Origin: Neodothiora populina
Lineage: Eukaryota
Length of the DNA: 64,000 nucleotides
Reading direction: 5' to 3'
NCBI RefSeq assembly: GCF_041146345.1
Contig: NW_027191410.1
Location: 62,001 to 126,000 of the forward strand
Shown here in pieces: positions 11,919 through 64,000 of this stretch (position 1 is the first letter of the stretch; each line of letters begins with the position of its first letter). The position numbers and the translations under genes were made by a program. The notes under the pieces were generated by a model. It was not told where the DNA came from. It saw only the letters and a program-made list of their open reading frames with translations, and did no database searches.

Positions 11919-12331
11919 TTCATCTTTCTTTTCTATTACCAAGGAGCTACGAAGGTAGTGTTTAGTGTACAAAAGACTCCGCAATCCAAACAACGGGAAA
12001 TACGGTCGGTAGTCGTACTACCCTCTCCCTTGTGCGGGACCTGTTTCTCCTTCTCTCTGCCTTGGGCTTGGCGGAGGCAAGCTCGCGACGTCGCCCCGCC
12101 CCTGCACTCGGGCGTTGTCCGTATTAGGCATCCCGGTTCCTAGTCCTGTACAACCAACCTGACTACCTATACAACATCTGTTTGACTCGCATACACAGTA
12201 TTGCCTCGCGAAACACCACTGCGTGTATCTATCGCGATTGTAAGAAACATCGTCGGACTGGGCCTGGCTTTCCAGGATCAAGAGTGTCCAGCACACTATA
12301 TTCATCAACTTGCTCAACCTCGAATCCAAAC

Positions 12332-13108
12332 ATGACCACAACCCAATCGACCCGTCGCCGCATTGTCGGCACTTCACTGAAGATGTACTTCGACATTCCC
12401 TCAACATCAACATACATCAAAGCTGTAGCACGACTGTCCGACCTGGCATCCCAAAACAACATTGACCTCTTTGTGATCCCCGATTTTGTATCTTTGACAT
12501 CATCAAAGCAGACACTCAGAGACACGAGTATCATCCTCGGAGCCCAGGACACTTTCTGGGAGAGCAAAGGCGCCTACACAGGTGAAGTCTCGCCACTAAC
12601 CCTGGCCCAGGCGGGCGTGGGACTGGTCGAAATCGGGCACGCGGAGCGACGGAGACTGTTCCACGAGACGGACGAAGAAGTAGGCAAGAAAGCGGCCGCC
12701 GCCATCACGAACGGAATCACTCCTCTGGTGTGTATCGGCGAGAAGAGCAAACCGGGGCCCGGCGTCTCGCAAGCGGTCGGTATGGCCGTCTCGGAATGCT
12801 CGACGCAGGTGGCTGCCGTGCTGTCTGCCGTGCCACCCTCTGCGGAGATTGTCTTCGCGTACGAGCCCGTGTGGGCGATTGGCGCTGCTGAACCTGCGAG
12901 TGCAGACCATGTCGTGGCCGTCACGCAGGAGCTGAGGAGACTTATCGCCAAGTCAAACAGAGACGGTCAAGTGAGGATTCTGTACGGCGGCAGTGCTGGG
13001 CCCGGCACGTTTCTGGGACTGAAAGATGGCGTGGACGGCTTGTTTCTAGGCAGATTCGCGCACGATGTACGTAATTTGGAGAAGGTCATTATGGAGATGA
13101 GTCAATGA
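12332..13108 (+). CDS. Triosephosphate isomerase-family protein, divergent TIM2 / L-erythrulose-1-P isomerase-like clade
   Basis: GTSLKMYF, GAYTGEVSP, GHAERR, AYEPVWAIG, LYGGSA and DGLFLGRFAH. Confidence 0.88.
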   Translation: MTTTQSTRRRIVGTSLKMYFDIPSTSTYIKAVARLSDLASQNNIDLFVIPDFVSLTSSKQTLRDTSIILGAQDTFWESKGAYTGEVSPLTLAQAGVGLVEIGHAERRRLFHETDEEVGKKAAAAITNGITPLVCIGEKSKPGPGVSQAVGMAVSECSTQVAAVLSAVPPSAEIVFAYEPVWAIGAAEPASADHVVAVTQELRRLIAKSNRDGQVRILYGGSAGPGTFLGLKDGVDGLFLGRFAHDVRNLEKVIMEMSQ

Positions 13109-13389
13109 ATATCGGGTGTCGAAATGCCTTGCGTTGTACATGGACCAATCATAACTATAGCAGAGTTGATGTGGGTGTCATGGTCCTTGTCATTGTTACT
13201 CTGACTTGTCTACCTCAGCAAGAATGCTCTAGCGGAGTTATATCGCGTCTTCGTTGCCTGTGATTTTCTTATCACTCCGTGCACTTTTGATCTGCTCAGC
13301 ATGTGACTAATCCGTGGGTCATTTGATGTTATCACTGCATCCAGATGTTTCTCCGAGCACTGAGTGATACGTGAATACAGAAATACTAC

Positions 13390-14078
13390 TCTGTGCCGGT
13401 TCGCTCAGTGGATGTCATTGTTTGGAGTGTCAAGGCAGGGGTGGTTCATTCACGAGGCAGTAGTAAGGTGGGAGAGTTAGAAAATGGACAGGGTGACCGC
13501 TTTGTATTTGTTCTGGTACAGCGAAGTGAAAGAATGACTTCATTCCTGCCTTTTATCTAGAGAAGATAGGAGTATATATCCACAGATCGACTAAATCTCG
13601 AACCTCTACTCTGCTCCACATTGGATAGGAAGGCATGACCAGCTATAACGTGGTTTGGAGAGCGAAATGCAGAGGGACAACGGCTGGACCTTGTTTAGTT
13701 GTTTGGCGTGTGTCTTGCCTGTGTTGCACAGCCACGTCTGCCTCTCCATGGAATGTGGTTATAGAGCAGGGTGGCGGCATTACTTGTGAATGTCTTTCCA
13801 TATCTGTATACACAAACACGATTTCAAGGCCGACTTCCGGAGTAACGAGTCCGCCAAAACAATGGGCTATAATCACCAATGGCCGAACTATATGGAGTAT
13901 CAGAACATCCGAGCAGGATGGATTGTTTCTCGCGCCTGTCGCGAGGCGATCGGGAACCGCTGTGCAACTCGAGATCATTTTGCTTATTTGCATCCGGTCC
14001 AAACTACGGGAATTCGTATCCAAACCGCATCGTTCGTGTAGCCGGATCGATTGACGGGAGCACGGCCGGATCGTTCCA
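13390..14078 (-). pseudogene. Relic SesB/SERAC1-like alpha/beta-hydrolase gene, 3' fragment
   Basis: Minus-strand translation across stops and frameshifts: WNDPAVLPSIDPATRTMRFGYEFP*FGPDANKQ / SRVAQRF / RPLVIIAHCFGGLV (13885-13844) / RDLVD / LVNE..CLD (13456-13429). Confidence 0.75.
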
Positions 14079-14229
14079 TCCTTAGGTTCTGATCAAAGAA
14101 CTTTTGCACGACACGAAACATGGATATCATGAGAACGTAAGGACATTCATCGGCGCTTCTTGCGAGTCTGCCCCCTAGTCGTACAATACCGTATAGATGT
14201 TGGAATTCGATTGAGATTGATCTTTTTGC

Positions 14230-15837
14230 TCACTTTTCGCCGTCTTCCTTCGCGAGCGCCTTCTCCCAGACACTGTCGAAGCTAGTGATGTCGGGCTTGG
14301 GCTCCTGCTGCTCTTGGAGGGGTGCGAAGGACGCAGAATCTACAGGATCTGACGAGAGCGTGGTTGATGCCGCAGTAGTCGCAGCACGAACCCCCTCCGC
14401 CGCATCGCCGGTCTCGTCTACAGCTTCGAATTCGAAATTGCTAGAGTAGATGACAGCGGCAAATCCCTCCAAGTCCTTGACGGCGTCGATGTTGGCGAGG
14501 TATTCATTGGCGGATCCAGCCTCTGCGGCGACAGCAGCGAGGTCGTCGGGCTCACTACTACCTGCGGCGATGACGTGGGCCTGACGACAGAACACAGCAA
14601 GGGTTTGGGCGATCTTGCACTTTGCGTCGAGCTCTGCTATCCGGTTTGTAGCGGAAGTAGGCTTGATCTTAAAGGCTTCTGCGGCGACGCGCTGGTCGAT
14701 GAGATGAGAGAAGGTGGTGTTCAGGAGGAGGGTCAGCACGTGGGTGAAAGTCGGGGAGTCGATGAGGTCAGATGTCTCATCAATCAGTCTTCGAAGAGAT
14801 GGACTTGAATCGGTGGATTGAAGTTGTGGTGCCGATGGTAAAGTATCGGTATTCATGCCAGATTCTTGCAGGACATAGTCCTCTTGATCCCGGGGCGGCA
14901 AGAGGTAGGCGAGCCACTTGTGCTGTCGTCGCTCCGTCTCCGTAGATCCTTCGACTCTCTTGCGAACGTCCAGGATGAGGTGTGACAGCCTCTCCAGTGT
15001 TATATCCTCGCGTGGATTCACGGCTCCAAAGACTTCCTCGACCGCGGTCTGCACCCTCTGCATAACGTCTTTGCTGCCGCGATGCAGCAACCACCAGCTA
15101 AAGGTCAGGTACTTTCTGTTCGTCTCAAAGTCATTTCCATACACATCATCGTAATTGTCGTCATTGTCTTGAAGAGAAATCTGTGAAGACTGCGTAGCAG
15201 CACGGGGCGATGCCAAGGAGACAACGGAGGAGAGATAAGTCCTCCTTCCTAGAAGATTGAGCTGAATGCGAGTAAGAAGAGTAAGAAGGGACAAGATATA
15301 CAACAGCGACAAAGCTCTTGTAATCGATTGTATCTTCAGATCGTTCCAGAGTTGCATCTTGCTTCTTTTGCTTCGAGTCTGGCTGGCGGACCCGCTGCTC
15401 TCGGCCATCTGGCTTGCATGTACATAAACGCTGCTCTGGAAGCTGGCGAGACTCCCCCTGTCATCCTCTATCGTGCTGGCTGGAGCCGAAGGAAACTCAG
15501 AGGAGGCAGCTTCGGAGGCGCCAGCACTCCTCGTCAGTCTATCCTGCTTCTGTCTCTGCAGCTCAGCAGTGATGTCTTCGGCCGGTAACGCAGCAATGAT
15601 TTCTTCTCTGAATGTCGGCAGAAGTGCGAGCACGGTATACGTGCAGTCTTCCTGGTTCTGCTCAAATCGCCGGCGAAGATTGTCCTTTGCAATCCTCTCC
15701 TCACTCATGCGCTGCCTTGCCTCCAGCCATTTGCCCCAGGCATATTGTCCAGCAAGATAGACAGCGCCGAGTGTACCTGCACCAACGGCAAGAGGGGTTC
15801 GATTGCGCCTGAACCAGCGGCGCGTCGCGGCGAACAT
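14230..15837 (-). CDS. PEX3: Peroxin 3 (intronless)
   Basis: N-terminal WFRRNR plus a TM segment, then NLRRRFEQNQEDCTYTVLALLP, LWNDLKIQSITR and LLTRIQLNLLGRR. Confidence 0.95.
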   Translation of the reverse strand: MFAATRRWFRRNRTPLAVGAGTLGAVYLAGQYAWGKWLEARQRMSEERIAKDNLRRRFEQNQEDCTYTVLALLPTFREEIIAALPAEDITAELQRQKQDRLTRSAGASEAASSEFPSAPASTIEDDRGSLASFQSSVYVHASQMAESSGSASQTRSKRSKMQLWNDLKIQSITRALSLLYILSLLTLLTRIQLNLLGRRTYLSSVVSLASPRAATQSSQISLQDNDDNYDDVYGNDFETNRKYLTFSWWLLHRGSKDVMQRVQTAVEEVFGAVNPREDITLERLSHLILDVRKRVEGSTETERRQHKWLAYLLPPRDQEDYVLQESGMNTDTLPSAPQLQSTDSSPSLRRLIDETSDLIDSPTFTHVLTLLLNTTFSHLIDQRVAAEAFKIKPTSATNRIAELDAKCKIAQTLAVFCRQAHVIAAGSSEPDDLAAVAAEAGSANEYLANIDAVKDLEGFAAVIYSSNFEFEAVDETGDAAEGVRAATTAASTTLSSDPVDSASFAPLQEQQEPKPDITSFDSVWEKALAKEDGEK

Positions 15838-15880
15838 AGCAATAGGAGGCGAAGGACAGGAGAGTGTAATATAGCGGTAT

Positions 15881-15913
15881 CAAGGCAAGATAAGGCAAGG
15901 CAAGGCGAGGCAA
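15881..15913. repeat. Degenerate (CAAGG)n pentamer repeat in the PEX3 5' leader
   Basis: caaggcaagataaggcaaggcaaggcgaggcaa. Confidence 0.8.
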
Positions 15914-16021
15914 TTCGTGCACGACACGTAGTTGACAGCTAAGGTATTGTAGATTACCCTAAATGGTATATTAACAACTGCTCTTTGGTCCAGGTTCCTT
16001 CCCCCCCCAATGCCATCATCG

Positions 16022-16077
16022 CCGAGGATCTACTCCATTCGGTTAGATCCGTGTCGTTATCATTGCACGTGCCGAGG
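16022..16077. promoter_or_regulatory. Two CCGAGG (CCTCGG) FarA/CTF1-type sites upstream of PEX3
   Basis: Exact matches at 16022-16027 and 16072-16077. This is the known fatty-acid/peroxisome response motif of filamentous fungi. Confidence 0.5.
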
Positions 16078-16270
16078 CAGGAGCGTGGCTTCACGCGCCA
16101 ACATCTCTACACGAGTTCATTGGTTTGAGCACCGATACCATGTATCGCAACGATGCTGCCCCGCCATTGATAATCCTTGTGCTCGCGGAGGACTTTCCAT
16201 ATCACCTTACTCGATAGTGTCCGGGTCATCTTCCGAAGTACCAGCGGAAGCTTCGACGAGAGGGTCTTGA
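16060..16270 (-). pseudogene. Relic SesB/SERAC1-like alpha/beta-hydrolase gene, 5' fragment with a preserved intron 16156..16210
   Basis: ...DDPDTI-GA|GTAAGG...CAG|C-ATCGTTGCGATACATGGTATCGGTGCT splices to TIDIVAIHGIGA. Frameshifted CRDVG and PRHVQ* follow. Confidence 0.7.
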
Positions 16271-16341
16271 GCTCCATGTCAAAAGTCAAGAGTGACGCCT
16301 TCCCCACGAGTCGCGCCAAGGACGCGATTCTATTTGCACAA

Positions 16342-16347
16342 ACGCGT
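16342..16347. promoter_or_regulatory. MCB element (ACGCGT) upstream of NSE2
   Basis: Exact ACGCGT about 150 bp before the NSE2 ATG, with a half-site ACGCGA at 16322. Fits G1/S control of an SMC5/6 gene. Confidence 0.45.
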
Positions 16348-16492
16348 CTTCCGCTCCTGCCTATTGAGACATGTGAAATCGAGACTCCGTATAGATTATG
16401 GTCACTTTTATTTCGAACAAAGCCCGCGACTGAATCTCCACTCAAGTCGTTTCCCTCCCATCAACGCGCTTGAGAAATCTCATCGAGCAGAG

Positions 16493-17938
16493 ATGACGTC
16501 CCGACTGCGACAATCAACGACAGCGACACCCCGAGCCAGTCGGTTGTCGACGAATGCCGCTGCAGCTCCCACTCCCACTGCACGGCGCAGCCAACAGCAA
16601 GCACGAGGTGTTGCACCTCCTGACTATGAGCCACCGACACACGCATTGAACCTGGCTGGACAGGCTAACCTCCAGACTCTCATGCAAAGCCGCAAGATCG
16701 ACCAGTTCGATGGTTTGATGCAGGAGGCCATCGCTGCCCTGAGCGAGAACGCTGCAGCTATCAACGATGCCTTGCGCGATAAGGAAACCGCCGTCCGCAA
16801 AGACAAGGCCCGACACGAGAGAGATGTCACAGACGACGACGATGATGATGAAGAGGCGGCAAGAATCAGGCGACTCGAGGATGGTCTGGAGAAGATGAGG
16901 GAAAAGGTTGGCAACATGACTAAGAAGATGGAGCAGGATCTGCTGAAGATGCTTGACACACGCGAATACTTCGGCGCCATCCGTCCAGCTTTACAAGAAA
17001 CCAGCAACGACACATCTGCTTTCTCCCGCCAGAATCCAACCCAGTCTCAGCCTCAGGCTCGGTCTACCCGCAATCGCTCACAGACACATCGCCAGCGGGC
17101 TGGAAGCGACGAGGAAGAAGAAGAGGAGGAGGAGGAGGATGGCGATGACGAGGAGTACCAGGACTTTACTCCGACAGACCCAGCGAATGCCCATACGCAA
17201 AACACACCAGCTCCACCAGCCCCAAGCAGTCTTTTTCGTGAGAAGCTGTCTCGCAAAAAGGACCGCTACCAGAACCTCTCCAAGCGTCAACGCTATGCTT
17301 CGGACAATGACTATCGCAACTTTCGACGTATCGTCCACGATGCTCGTTATGGGGACACTGTGCCACTGCCGCACGAGAGCACCTGGTTCTCGGACTCTTC
17401 TGCCGCCCCGGCCCCAGGCGTTACCGCAAGAGCAGAGGATTCAGATGATGACCTGCAAATAGCAAAAGAAACAATCTCCACCAAGTGTCCTCTGACTCTA
17501 CAAGAGTTCAGAGAACCTCTGACCAGCACCAAGTGCCCCCATTCCTTCGAGAAAGATGCCATTCTCGGTATGATAGACAACCCTTCCAACACCATGAGAG
17601 TAGGCGGGAGCAACACCCGCGGAGCAAGAGACGGACAAAAAGCTGTGCAATGTCCCGTACCTGGTTGTTCGCACGTCCTGACCAAGAACGACCTTCATTC
17701 CGACCCTGTACTATTGAGAAAGATTCGCAGGATTCAGAAGGCCAACGCCGAAGAGGAGGATGGCGACGACGACATAGACGATCAGGTGGACGGCGGTCGA
17801 TCACGACCGCAGGAGATCGAGAGCGGAGGCAGCGAGGACGAGGGTGATGATATCGACAACGTCTACGACGAGGCTGATCTACGCCGCATCAAGAGGGAGC
17901 GGTTAAGTGGTATGCAGAGAGCTTCCCAGAGACCCTGA
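16493..17938 (+). CDS. NSE2: SMC5/6 SUMO E3 ligase Nse2/Mms21 (SP-RING)
   Basis: DDDLQIAKETISTKCPLT...KCPHSFEKDAI...VQCPVPGC. Confidence 0.88.
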   Translation: MTSRLRQSTTATPRASRLSTNAAAAPTPTARRSQQQARGVAPPDYEPPTHALNLAGQANLQTLMQSRKIDQFDGLMQEAIAALSENAAAINDALRDKETAVRKDKARHERDVTDDDDDDEEAARIRRLEDGLEKMREKVGNMTKKMEQDLLKMLDTREYFGAIRPALQETSNDTSAFSRQNPTQSQPQARSTRNRSQTHRQRAGSDEEEEEEEEEDGDDEEYQDFTPTDPANAHTQNTPAPPAPSSLFREKLSRKKDRYQNLSKRQRYASDNDYRNFRRIVHDARYGDTVPLPHESTWFSDSSAAPAPGVTARAEDSDDDLQIAKETISTKCPLTLQEFREPLTSTKCPHSFEKDAILGMIDNPSNTMRVGGSNTRGARDGQKAVQCPVPGCSHVLTKNDLHSDPVLLRKIRRIQKANAEEEDGDDDIDDQVDGGRSRPQEIESGGSEDEGDDIDNVYDEADLRRIKRERLSGMQRASQRP

Positions 17939-45150: not shown

Positions 45151-46242
45151 TCATCTGAGTGGCAAAATCTTCTGGGCTCTGACAGCCTGTCTGCAGAGCG
45201 GACACTCCTGCTTCTCGGTCAACCAATCGGAGAGGCAGGTCCAGCAGAAGACGTGGCCGCAGGTGGTAGCCGAGGGATCCTTCATGGCCTCGAGACACAG
45301 GGTGCATTTGCGCTGCTGGGGGCTGTCAATCCAGGGCAGGCGATGCGGGTCCTCGAGCGAGATGATGGCGCCGCCTGTCGAGGGTGTTGGATAGGGGGTT
45401 TGGGTCAGGAACTGGATTGTCATGTGTTTCTGCGGGGCCGTCGAGGTTTCCTTGTCGGTCTCTTCTTGTTGTTCTTTCTCGCCCAGAGATGACGCTGATT
45501 GTGGCTTTTCCTCCAGCGTCTCCCGCGCGTGCAGATATGCCTGCACAGACAGCTGAAGCACGAGCAGGACGCCCAGGAGCTCGTAGCCGCCTCTCTGCTC
45601 GGATGGCTCGAGTCGCCTGGTGAAGATGTAGCGGAGGTTCAGCAGGCGTTTGGAGATGTGGTAGTAGGCGCCGGTGAAGTAAAAGGCGGCCAGACTCAGA
45701 GCGTAGACGGGAGACGGACTGGTCAGGGTGTCGAGGTTCTCGAGGAGGTATGCCTGGAGACGTGCGGTCTTTGATCCGGCGTTGTTGCGTTTCCGCCGGG
45801 TCAGGGAAATGTCGAGTTTCGCTCTCAGCTTCCTTCGAAAGGCCGGTAGGATCTTCTGTAGCGAGTAGGGCACAAGTACGGTGCCTACAATATAGGCGCC
45901 TCTCCGCCAGACCTGCGGCAGGGTCGCTTGTACATTCAGGCCGTATTCTTCCAGCTGGACAATGTCGCAGTATTCCTCGCCGAGAGTCCTGTTCCCCACC
46001 AGGGTCGTGAGACAGAGGTACAGGAGATCGGCCAGTGTGCGCAAGTCAGTGGCGTAGGTGTGAGCGAAGCGGGCTCCTCGCAGAGTGCGGAAGACTGCGG
46101 TCAGGTGGGTGGATAGTTGGGACTGGAAGTACGTGTCTTTCTGGTGCGAGCGGATGATGTCTGGCGCCGAGGCGTGAGGGTAGGAGAAAGCAGTCGCCGT
46201 GGTCGCCTCGCCGTCAGGTCGGTCGCGGACCAGCTCAGCCAT
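45151..46242 (-). CDS. PEX10: Peroxin 10, RING E3 (intronless)
   Basis: APDIIRSHQKD, TTLVGNRTLGEEYCD, GAYYHISKRL and RING CTLCLE...CGHVFCWTC...CPLCRQ. Confidence 0.95.
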   Translation of the reverse strand: MAELVRDRPDGEATTATAFSYPHASAPDIIRSHQKDTYFQSQLSTHLTAVFRTLRGARFAHTYATDLRTLADLLYLCLTTLVGNRTLGEEYCDIVQLEEYGLNVQATLPQVWRRGAYIVGTVLVPYSLQKILPAFRRKLRAKLDISLTRRKRNNAGSKTARLQAYLLENLDTLTSPSPVYALSLAAFYFTGAYYHISKRLLNLRYIFTRRLEPSEQRGGYELLGVLLVLQLSVQAYLHARETLEEKPQSASSLGEKEQQEETDKETSTAPQKHMTIQFLTQTPYPTPSTGGAIISLEDPHRLPWIDSPQQRKCTLCLEAMKDPSATTCGHVFCWTCLSDWLTEKQECPLCRQAVRAQKILPLR

Positions 46243-46758
46243 GTTGTCGAGATGTTGTTCCCTCAGATGAGGATGTTGTCGACGTGTGGTGGAGAGGAAG
46301 CATACCGACGTAAGGTATAATGCCTGAGCTTACCGCATGCCGAGGCAGCTACTCCCCACCTTGAATAGGTAAGGTAATTAGTCACAGAACCTTGTCTGCT
46401 GTTCACCACACTTTGGTCCATGGATACTCGGTAATGGTGCTTGTCTGTTCGATAGTAGATTCTTTTCTGTGGGTTACAAATATATAGCAAATTCATTGAA
46501 TACAGAAACAAAAACACATCTTTCCGTATCAATGGAAAGAGAATGCACACGGCAGGCACGGCTTCTCAAACAGAAGGAGCCTCTTCGCATGTGCAGTGAC
46601 GTCGATGCCGCAAATTCACCATCCGCCTTCACAATCTCTCCAACTCCAATTACCTGACAAGCGCCACGACTGAAATGTATTGAGCATACCACAGAAGAGC
46701 TGCTGGCAACACTCCAATCCTCTCCGGTACAAGCATATTTACTCGAACAACCTTCGCC

Positions 46759-62696: not shown

Positions 62697-64000
62697 ATGT
62701 TCGCTGCCAAAGGGCGCATTATTCGCACCCCACTACTCCGCCCGCACCTTCTTGTCAACAGTTCAAAGGCCAGTCTACTCTGCTCAATATGGACGATGGG
62801 CGAACTGACCTAAGTAATAGACACTCGCGATGGCCCCAACACGAAAACAGTCAACCCTTCCCGCAGGTGAGTCGTCAAAATATCATTTCACTACGACATA
62901 TCCCAAGACTGGGTTCTAATGTCGAGTCAAGGCTATAAGGAGGATGCGTCGAAAGGTGCAATGCTTCGATTCGAGGACTCACTCCCTCGCTTGCCTGTCC
63001 CCACCCTAGAAGAGACGAGTAAACGTTATCTACGTTCAGTCCTTCCACTCCTGTCGAAAGAGGAATATGCTACGACTCAGAAGGCTGTAAAGTCATTCCT
63101 CGCCTCAGGTAGCCTGGGTCAAGAACTCCAAAAACGTCTGGAAGCGAAGCGTGAAGACAAGAACGTCAAGAACTGGATCTATGAGTGGTGGAATGAGGCT
63201 GCATATCTAGCATACCGCGATCCCGTTGTGCCTTACGTTTCATACTTTTATTCTCACAGAGATGACCGCAAGCGACGGGACCCTGCCAAACGAGCTGCTG
63301 CTATTACTACGTCTGTGCTGGACTTCAAGGCTCAGGTCGATCAAGGTTCCTTGGAACCCGAGTACATGAAGAAGCTGCCTATCGCTATGAGCTCATATGA
63401 GTTCATGTTCAACTGCTGCAGAATCCCTGCGAAGCCAGCTGACTACCCTAAGAAGTACGAACACAACACCCACAAACATATTGTGGTTGTGCGTAAGAAC
63501 CAGTTTTTCAAGATCGAGCACGAGGTTGCTGGCAAGCAACTCAACACTAGCGAGCTAGAGAAGCAATTCAGACGTGTCTACGAGATCGCCGAGAAGCAAC
63601 CCAGCGTCGGTATCTTGACCACAGAGAACAGAGATACCTGGACGGAGATGCGCGAGTCACTCATCAAGACAAACCCTGCCAACCAAACAGCTCTGGAGAC
63701 CATCGAATCAGCTTCCTTCGTGGTCTGCCTTGACGATGCTAAGCCGGTGACTCTTGAAGAACGTGCCCATCAGTACTGGCATGGTGATGGTAGCAACCGT
63801 TTCTTCGACAAGCCTTTGCAATTCATCGTCAACGATAACGGTACTTCCGGTTTCATGGGCGAGCACAGTATGATGGACGGAACTCCTACACACCGCTTGA
63901 ATGACTACGTCAACTATCTCATCTTCAACAACAAGCTAGACTATGACAACCCGTCAATCCGATCGAACCTTGCTGACCCCACCCCAATCCGCTTTGAGCT
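62697..64000 (+). CDS. CAT2: Carnitine O-acetyltransferase (Cat2/AcuJ type), 5' part; first intron ends at 62820 (donor uncertain); intron 62867..62931
   Basis: LPRLPVPTLEET..RYL, NWIYEWW, NRFFDKPLQF and GEHSMMDG (catalytic His). Runs off the window. Confidence 0.9.

Follow-up and report, generated by a model that had tools for sequence, protein, structure and literature searches.

The gene for peroxin-3 (PEX3) of Neodothiora populina is encoded on the minus strand of a 64,000-nucleotide (nt) stretch of DNA (NCBI RefSeq assembly GCF_041146345.1, contig NW_027191410.1, positions 62,001 to 126,000 of the forward strand; this whole stretch is called the window, and its own numbering is used below), where it stands intact amid the remains of another gene. 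On both sides of PEX3, and on the same strand, lie decayed pieces of a hydrolase gene of the type found at the N-terminus of fungal NOD-like receptors (NLRs), and alignments to uninterrupted family members support the view that these pieces once formed a single gene, now dead, whose two halves are still collinear and abutting. Because such halves enclose one complete gene, the locus has the signature of an insertion. It is proposed here, with a probability of about 0.6, that a single insertion brought PEX3 to this site, through break repair that either captured an ectopic DNA fragment or used it as a template for copying.

The peptide strings on which an initial annotation had based its reading of the locus are all present on the minus strand, upstream and downstream of PEX3. 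The upstream relic reads ..SEDDPDTI-GA/GTAAGG...CAG/C-IVAIHGIGA (slashes mark intron boundaries) and then, after two frame changes, CRDVGA and PRHVQ with two stops. Downstream, three frames hold GWNDPAVLPSIDPATRTMRFGYEFP followed by a stop and FGPDANKQ (14081-13980), SRVAQR, and RPLVIIAHCFGGLV (13885-13844). The pieces are referred to as U (the 5' part of exon 2, 16063..16155) and as M and D (both within 13841..14081, D being RPLVIIAHCFGGLV).

Relatives of the relic were retrieved from metagenomes by back-translating the window's own D motif, IAHCFGGLV, into a degenerate pattern and scanning metagenome contigs with it. The scan returned 66 loci (L001-L066), against about 5 expected by chance (a hand estimate); in roughly 60 of the 66 the motif stands in the context RP-x3-IAHCFGGLVVLK, which five lack (L018, L022, L027, L059, L060). 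Gene models aware of frameshifts and introns give the family domain the order SIVAIHGIGAHPDD-WCKNVG...PRWVNWL...MLPAVAPNARIMRYGY-SQWFG...STVAQRLL...RPLIFIAHCFGGLVVLKALL...GLIFFGTPFRGAEG. At 9 of the 11 loci examined, downstream open reading frames (ORFs) carry NACHT/NPHP3_N or NB-ARC domains together with WD40, ankyrin or TPR repeats; because of these neighbours the family is, judged by domain content, the N-terminal hydrolase-type effector domain of fungal NLRs, in keeping with the link to NLR effectors made in the initial annotation. None of the 66 metagenome loci holds a PEX3, triosephosphate-isomerase-type or Nse2-type gene, and none is a close DNA relative of the window flanks.

The initial annotation called the relic family SesB/SERAC1/PGAP1-like, a putative name for which the literature is the basis, including the NLR survey cited at the end of this paragraph. 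Pfam Abhydrolase_6 scores family member L054 at E 4.3e-4 and 21.5 bits, below its cut-off of 26.3, and does not score L010, and a PDB profile search with three family ORFs gave 0 matches at E<=1. The AlphaFold model of L054 is of low confidence (mean pLDDT 53); the matches found with this model by Foldseek are nearly all alpha/beta hydrolases (TM 0.24-0.36, E 6e-4 or weaker) and give a weak lead to the fold. A SesB-like N-terminal lipase/esterase domain of fungal NLRs has reportedly been described by Graziani in 2004 and by Daskalov in 2012. The relic family resembles this domain in the order of an HG motif, ..RYGY..WFG.. and a nucleophile-elbow-like AHCFGG, and the retrieved members likewise precede NACHT or NB-ARC domains and WD40, ankyrin or TPR repeats. 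It differs in that the retrieved subfamily has Cys at the elbow (AHCFGG) where lipases have Ser (GHSxGG), this Cys being forced by the search pattern; moreover, the window copy is dead and is without NOD and repeats. According to the excerpted text of a survey of fungal NLRs, sesB-like domains are among the most frequent NLR N-termini and are a predicted lipase related to human SERAC1 (Dyrka et al. 2014, PMC4986451).

Decayed copies also occur among the metagenome loci: L062 has 8 in-frame stops, L007, L012, L032 and L040 have 1 stop each, and each second copy in L034 and L038 carries a frameshift besides 2 stops. On two contigs, L034/L035 and L038/L063, two family members face opposite ways at a distance of about 3 kb, one of them intact and the other degenerate.

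That the flanks of PEX3 belong to this family is supported by three kinds of comparison. In tblastn searches of the whole window with three uninterrupted ORFs (L010, L054 and L002), U, M and D were the top three matches for every query; D and M came out as linked matches (E 2e-8, 3.5e-7 and 3e-5 to 1e-4), and the E value of U was 0.016-0.24. A hidden Markov model (HMM) of 31 family members, run against 2,880 six-frame fragments of the window, ranked D first (E 2.8e-5), M second (E 0.0048) and U third (E 0.16); they matched profile positions 85-101, 33-53 and 1-13, respectively, which is the family order on one strand. Frameshift-aware alignment scored 62 for the U flank and 142 for the M-D flank, compared with 30.6 +/- 4.9 (maximum 44) and 30.9 +/- 4.5 (maximum 46) for shuffled flanks (60 each). 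Given these tblastn, shuffle and HMM results, a chance resemblance of the flanks to the hydrolase is excluded. The match of D is partly circular, since the family was fished with the 9-residue motif of D itself; U and M are independent. U agrees with the family consensus SIVAIHGIGA at 10 of 10 residues, and over about 130 aligned codons the relic is 43-51% identical to family members. Each hydrolase motif expression occurs a single time in the six-frame translation of the window, the expressions having been picked after the finding was seen.

The initial annotation had placed the insert at 14079-16059 and the meeting point of the two halves at a VNWL.D motif, and alignment across the join bears this out. 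When 16420-13500 was aligned in a frameshift-aware manner under a strict penalty for long skips, both flanks aligned to the same family, in order and without overlap. The alignments to L002, L010 and L054 each contain one large skip, from 16065, 16073 and 16069, respectively, to 14082 (1,984-1,992 nt), which falls between family ..WV or ..YI and NWL.. and skips 0 family residues. Altogether, 26 of the 31 members agree on a single jump of about 2 kb that separates ..PRWV from NWL.. (left edge 16057-16096, right edge 14073-14112); in the remaining five (L009, L021, L024, L034, L064), spurious matches arise inside the segment. The limits obtained here, 14082-16062, agree with the earlier ones within 3 nt. 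The profile consensus places the break within about 8 residues only, because the linker that precedes NWL is not of constant length in the family. Many members have PRWV or PRYV directly before NWL, as in the PRHV of U, and the two halves thus meet with 0-1 residue missing.

Three introns are conserved in the family: intron 1, in phase 2, directly before IVAIHG, intron 2 near residue 88 and intron 3 near residue 109. Of 40 copies of intron 1, 39 have an AG acceptor and 38 a GA/GT donor; its length is 47-65 nt (median 53). The 55-nt GTAAGG...CAG element upstream of PEX3, described in the initial annotation as an intact intron, deserves that description, because it lies at the exact family intron-1 site with ATCGA/GT as donor context. 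An intron at V/NWL is present in 0 of 31 clean family models, so the gap between the halves is not an expanded intron, and a gene nested in an intron of its host was likewise ruled out. Nested intronic genes are similar in that a gene is enclosed by a second gene of the same strand, but here an exon is broken and the host is a dead gene.

Over about 140 codons the relic has accumulated at least five frameshifts and one in-frame stop. The frameshifts lie at 16127-16124, between 16094 and 16077, and at 13976-13975, 13840-13837 and 13788-13785, and the stop is a TAG at 14006-14004 where the family has Trp (TGG, in WFG). This TGG to TAG change is a G-to-A change in TpG context, of the type produced by repeat-induced point mutation (RIP); the regional dinucleotide indices are without RIP. 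A further frameshift within exon 1 is probable, because ELKTL, which resembles family GLKVL, and ..DDPDTID are in different frames. At the site of intron 2 a remnant of 19-29 nt is left (13917-13889). Beyond D, frameshift-aware alignments follow the family weakly over 13731..13840 (4 of 16 and 5 of 18 identities, with two extra frameshifts), where tblastn with family ORFs finds no match. An LVNE..CLD string and a lower limit of 13390 had also been assigned to the dead gene in the initial annotation; this part did not hold, with no tblastn or alignment support below about 13731. No remnant of the NOD or the repeats of a receptor was found anywhere in the 64-kb window, and the receptor is thus truncated as well as broken.

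PEX3 itself is an uninterrupted ORF of 1,608 nt, from the ATG at 15837 to the stop at 14232-14230. Its 535 residues match Pfam PF04882 over the full profile (1-458 of 458; E 1.6e-160, 535.7 bits against a cut-off of 27.6), which upholds the earlier description of the gene as intact. The best named relative is the 543-residue Peroxin-3 of Delphinella strobiligena, which is 74% identical and collinear, with its residue 1 aligned at ATG 15837; residues 1-540 of another match, P0004, correspond to 15837-14245 at 73% identity. There are 1,639 homologs at E<=1e-20; those listed span 79-100% of the query, many of them 100%, and further matches come from Aureobasidium and other Dothideomycetes, which places the window in a Dothideomycete close to Dothideales. 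Full-length homologs known only from Logan are found on contigs that barely exceed the coding sequence (for example, 579 residues on 1,892 nt and 517 residues on 1,743 nt). An intronless PEX3 is probably the norm in Dothideomycetes and likely ancestral, and its lack of introns is uninformative here because the Logan-only homologs sit on contigs so little longer than the coding sequence. PEX3 would have remained under selection after the event, and a function in peroxisome biogenesis is predicted. A record named 'peroxisomal biogenesis factor 3 [Quercus suber]' (P0106) is 57% identical to the window PEX3 and is ranked with sequences of Dothideomycetes; the oak record is probably contaminated by a fungus.

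The segment between the halves contains no ORF of at least 170 residues besides PEX3. It is also without terminal inverted repeats (TIRs), long terminal repeats (LTRs), terminal or inverted repeats beyond chance, or a repeat family; no tRNA gene or Rfam family was found in it, and its ends have no second copy within the window. Neither the segment nor the relic shows RIP-like dinucleotide skew. Helitron-type TC...CTRR ends were not seen on inspection by eye alone. An A-rich or poly(A) tail is absent from the 3' end, with no A run longer than 4 in the last 30 nt before 14082. Moreover, no transposon, transposase, reverse transcriptase or NLR domain was detected by Pfam in the 43 longest window ORFs (of 68 ORFs of at least 170 residues), and the same set gave no reverse transcriptase or long interspersed nuclear element (LINE). 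The absence of transposase, LTR and TIR noted in the initial annotation is therefore borne out, no such feature, repeat copy, tRNA or Rfam element having been found. The 225-nt leader of PEX3 holds several upstream ATGs and, 44-76 nt before the start codon, a pyrimidine-rich CCTTG array, which is possibly a core-promoter CT block carried within the segment. Array 31-mers occur at high depth in all three sequencing runs considered below (X1, X2 and X3), and 31-mers with 3 mismatches reach 1,650 in X3; similar simple repeats are thus plentiful in the samples of these runs. The coordinates of all features are given in Table 1.

Table 1. Features of the PEX3 locus and its immediate neighbours (window positions)
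Feature	Position	Strand	Basis or remark
Triosephosphate-isomerase-family gene, stop-to-stop ORF	12128..13108	+	Pfam PF00121, E 2.5e-56; convergent with the relic
Possible further relic: ..KSALKS.., ..IPWRGRRG (family ..KALLDA.., ..TPFRGAEG)	13731..13840	-	Weak; alignments only
Relic exon 2-3, M and D: (G)W-NDPAVLP..TRTMRFGYEFP, stop, FG..SRVAQR..RPLVIIAHCFGGLV	13841..14081	-	tblastn, HMM, alignment
Interrupting segment, about 1,981 nt: 225-nt 5' flank, PEX3 coding sequence, 148-nt 3' flank	14082..16062	-	Frameshift-aware alignments; edges +/- few nt
PEX3 (peroxin-3) coding sequence, 535 codons and stop, intronless	14230..15837	-	Pfam PF04882
Pyrimidine-rich pentamer array, CCTTG on gene strand (CAAGG on other strand), 6.6 copies	15881..15913	-	Tandem Repeats Finder
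Relic exon 2 5' part, U: (D)IVAIHGIGA, two frameshifts, ..CRDVGA.., ..PRHVQ and two stops	16063..16155	-	tblastn, HMM, alignment
Relic intron 1, 55 nt, GTAAGG...CAG, phase 2, directly before IVAIHG (IVAIHGIGA 16154-16128)	16156..16210	-	Family intron-1 site
Relic exon 1, 5' limit approximate at ATG 16277-16275, ends ..ACT ATC GA/GT	16211..16277	-	Family donor context
Divergent intergenic region, 215 bp, relic ATG to Nse2-type gene ATG	16278..16492	.	Coordinates
zf-Nse (MIZ/SP-RING, Nse2/Mms21-type) domain gene	16493..17938	+	Pfam PF11789, E 3.6e-22; ATG about 16493

Support for the assembly at the junctions comes from sequencing runs. One 27,152-nt Logan contig of run X1, which may be the source of the window's own assembly, spans 12900-16900 and both junctions with 1 homopolymer difference (1 nt), and a contig of run X2, from the same sample, bridges 13527-15896 including the downstream junction. 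Run X3, from another study and at a depth of about 3, yields three identical bits of 187-210 nt and bridges neither junction. The contig on record for the PEX3 protein is 1.38 Mb. Because the X1 contig spans both junctions and X2 bridges the downstream one, an assembly chimera at the junctions is unlikely. The homopolymer in the 5' flank of PEX3 is a G8 run at 16001-16008, and the X1 contig is one G shorter there. The 210-nt X3 contig (window 16061-16270, depth 2.6) is identical to the upstream relic and stops 1 base from the junction placed here; neither continuation at 16061 is present in X3. A coverage gap is the simplest reading of this contig end, which may also mark a branch point between alleles.

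Among the best PEX3 matches, seven (P0006-P0009 and P0011-P0013; six from named Aureobasidium and one a JGI metagenome protein) hold a Peroxin-3 domain followed by dihydrofolate reductase (DHFR) in one model of 819-834 residues; in P0006, for example, the Peroxin-3 domain is at 7-477 and DHFR at 676-797. These models are probably annotation fusions of two tandem genes, and they place DHFR directly downstream of PEX3 on the same strand in Aureobasidium. No DHFR is present in the 64-kb window by tblastn, in which five Peroxin-3-DHFR proteins match only PEX3. The neighbours of PEX3 therefore vary within the class, which fits a relocation here without telling which lineage changed.

The anatomy of the locus and the homology, collinearity and abutment of the two halves are shown by these comparisons; the direction of the event, its single-event nature and its DNA-level mechanism are what we infer. 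A DNA segment of about 1.98 kb with a complete PEX3 (225 nt upstream, 148 nt downstream) would have been inserted in sense orientation into exon 2 of an NLR gene, at the point where the codons of ..PRWV(N) give way to those of W(L)ND... By this single step a receptor gene with a putative N-terminal SesB-type alpha/beta-hydrolase domain would have been split and killed, and the receptor would then have decayed through at least five frameshifts, the TGG to TAG change, the shortening of intron 2 and the loss of the NOD and repeat region. The route envisaged as most likely needs no transposon: repair of a double-strand break would have captured a genomic fragment from an ectopic site or copied it as a template, the donor copy presumably being lost at the event or later. 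Capture of DNA is favoured because there are no transposon ends and no A tail, and because a promoter-like CT block lies inside the segment, a position which would favour DNA capture over mRNA capture. The earlier suggestion that PEX3 was relocated without a transposon thus stands as regards the insertion anatomy and the lack of transposon features; the mechanism and the direction of relocation are still matters of inference.

Several observations weigh against this account. Pfam detected no hydrolase family at E<=1 in the three relic fragments (with the TAG read as X), and two word-indexed searches of 5.8 billion proteins with the relic pieces scored none of 171 (E<=1) and 134 (E<=10) candidates. 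When the middle piece was run through HMMER against all 1.84 billion representatives, 2 matches appeared, both unrelated and to an out-of-frame low-complexity tail, and the PDB profile search found no match for the relic's family. The upstream junction is bridged solely by the X1 contig, possibly the window's own source. A clear junction signature (target-site duplication or microhomology) was not found at the two junctions; the junction pair matches at 13 of 18 columns with one 2-nt gap, a possible duplication of 13-16 nt, which is not significant in that 6.2% of 20,000 random 24-nt pairs score equally high (p ~0.06). The segment is mRNA-sized and intronless, which fits retroposition as well. 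A Neohortaea model fuses an rRNA methyltransferase upstream of PEX3, and the difference from Aureobasidium could be explained equally by a rearrangement in the Aureobasidium lineage. According to the excerpted text of a comparison of Dothideomycete genomes, gene order in this class changes mainly through inversions (Ohm et al. 2012, PMC3516569).

If PEX3 had arrived by retroposition, its mRNA (spliced or intronless) would have been reverse-transcribed and inserted in sense about 210 nt past the NLR start, and would be driven by the NLR promoter shared divergently with the Nse2-type gene. The insert (225 + 1,608 + 148 nt) has the size of an mRNA and consists of one intronless gene, in sense, in a transcribed exon, and the weak junction match could be a decayed target-site duplication. 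A duplication of 13-16 nt fits LINE-type insertion in length. This route is nevertheless considered unlikely: the 3' end has no A-rich tail, the match between the junctions lacks significance, an intronless state is probably normal for PEX3 in the class and hence uninformative, the upstream ATGs in the leader and the CT block suggest that transcription starts within the insert, and the window has no reverse transcriptase or LINE. An origin through two or more nested inversions, or another multi-step rearrangement, appears improbable to much the same degree. One breakpoint would lie in the hydrolase gene, and a second inversion would re-invert all but PEX3. The relatives of PEX3 are Dothideomycetes, in which inversions dominate and, in the excerpted text of the same comparison, have breakpoints near simple repeats (PMC3516569). 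Simple repeats do occur within 200 nt of the upstream junction (the array at 15881-15913 and the G8 run at 16001-16008), and if a breakpoint was reused inexactly, any flank DNA left behind would go unnoticed within the 148-nt 3' flank of PEX3. However, this history needs at least two events, in which a breakpoint is used again at nearly the same place (within about 100 nt) and the hydrolase break costs 0-1 codon; precisely one gene, with minimal flanks, has to end up between the halves, and no inverted remnants are seen.

Very little weight is given to the view that two paralogous hydrolase copies once flanked PEX3 and were each trimmed by deletion. Family pairs about 3 kb apart do exist on metagenome contigs (L034/L035/L038/L063), but they are inverted, and pseudogenised copies are common (L007, L012, L032, L040, L062 and the second copies in L034 and L038). 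Two separate deletions would both need to stop at one and the same codon, with a gap of 0-1 residue and no overlap, and both pieces lie on the same strand in family order; the view was rejected for its requirement of identical end codons. An artefact, meaning either a chimeric junction or a chance likeness to the hydrolase, is hardly credible. It could draw on the upstream junction being bridged only by a contig of the possible source sample, and on the blindness of Pfam and the large protein searches to the flanks; against it stand the X1 contig of 27,152 nt over both junctions, the X2 contig over 13527-15896, the 1.38-Mb contig on record for PEX3, and the tblastn, shuffle and HMM results that exclude chance. 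Capture mediated by a transposon (Helitron, Pack-type or LTR) finds no support: no terminal repeats or further copies were found in the window, no Helitron-type ends were seen by eye, and Pfam gave no transposase or reverse transcriptase in the 43 window ORFs submitted to it.

The rest of the 64-kb window is densely occupied by housekeeping genes. About 620 nt separate the last weak similarity of the relic (13731) from the triosephosphate-isomerase-type gene. The divergent intergenic region on the other side is presumably the former promoter of the dead hydrolase gene, now upstream of PEX3. A second peroxin, with a Pex2/Pex12 N-terminal region and a RING finger, is encoded at 45154-46329 (-), 30 kb from PEX3, and a carnitine/choline acyltransferase is encoded at the end of the window (62871-63998, +); the proximity of these two genes to PEX3 is probably a coincidence.

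The favoured insertion by break repair can be compared with known kinds of gene movement. Transposition of single genes through break repair that captures ectopic DNA is known from break-repair experiments in yeast and from comparative genomics of Drosophila and Arabidopsis. The present locus is similar in having one gene with minimal flanks at a new site, in lacking transposon ends and in duplicating its target little if at all; it differs in that the target is a coding exon of another gene, both halves of which are readable at codon resolution. Among 12 of the 113 papers returned by a limited literature search, judged by title, no case from a filamentous fungus with both junctions preserved was found. 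Processed retrogenes can recruit the promoter of a host gene, and the present insert resembles them in being intronless, mRNA-sized and in sense just downstream of an existing promoter; it is unlike them in that a poly(A) remnant is absent, any target-site duplication falls short of significance, and the lack of introns is probably ancestral. Mesosynteny of Dothideomycetes, in which gene order is said to change via intrachromosomal inversions (a view attributed to Hane, 2011), concerns the same fungal class, and the neighbours of PEX3 do differ among lineages. In contrast to the outcome of a single inversion, the scar described here keeps all parts co-oriented and has the signature of an insertion.

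The locus adds one more instance to a known class of events, the move of a single gene into a dispensable gene of immune type. A bolder version, which is held tentatively and is on the whole doubted, is that a transposon-independent copy-and-paste or cut-and-paste move replaced an ancestral DHFR-adjacent PEX3 locus, landed in the NLR gene and now uses its divergent promoter region. Changes of gene order in filamentous ascomycetes are usually inferred from dot plots and ascribed to inversions, and to our knowledge single events have hardly ever been resolved to the nucleotide. Here the target site, the limits of the insert and the lack of transposon ends can be read directly, because both junctions have been kept in a recognisable reading frame, and the decay of the host gene could allow an estimate of the age of the event. 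The locus is a single anecdotal case and not a new system; genomes of relatives could show whether such moves are mediated by DNA or RNA, and whether fast-evolving NLR genes are safe landing sites. If the bolder version is true, gene order in Dothideomycetes would be reshuffled by single-gene insertion besides inversions, and NLR genes would be able to serve as tolerant landing sites for essential genes.

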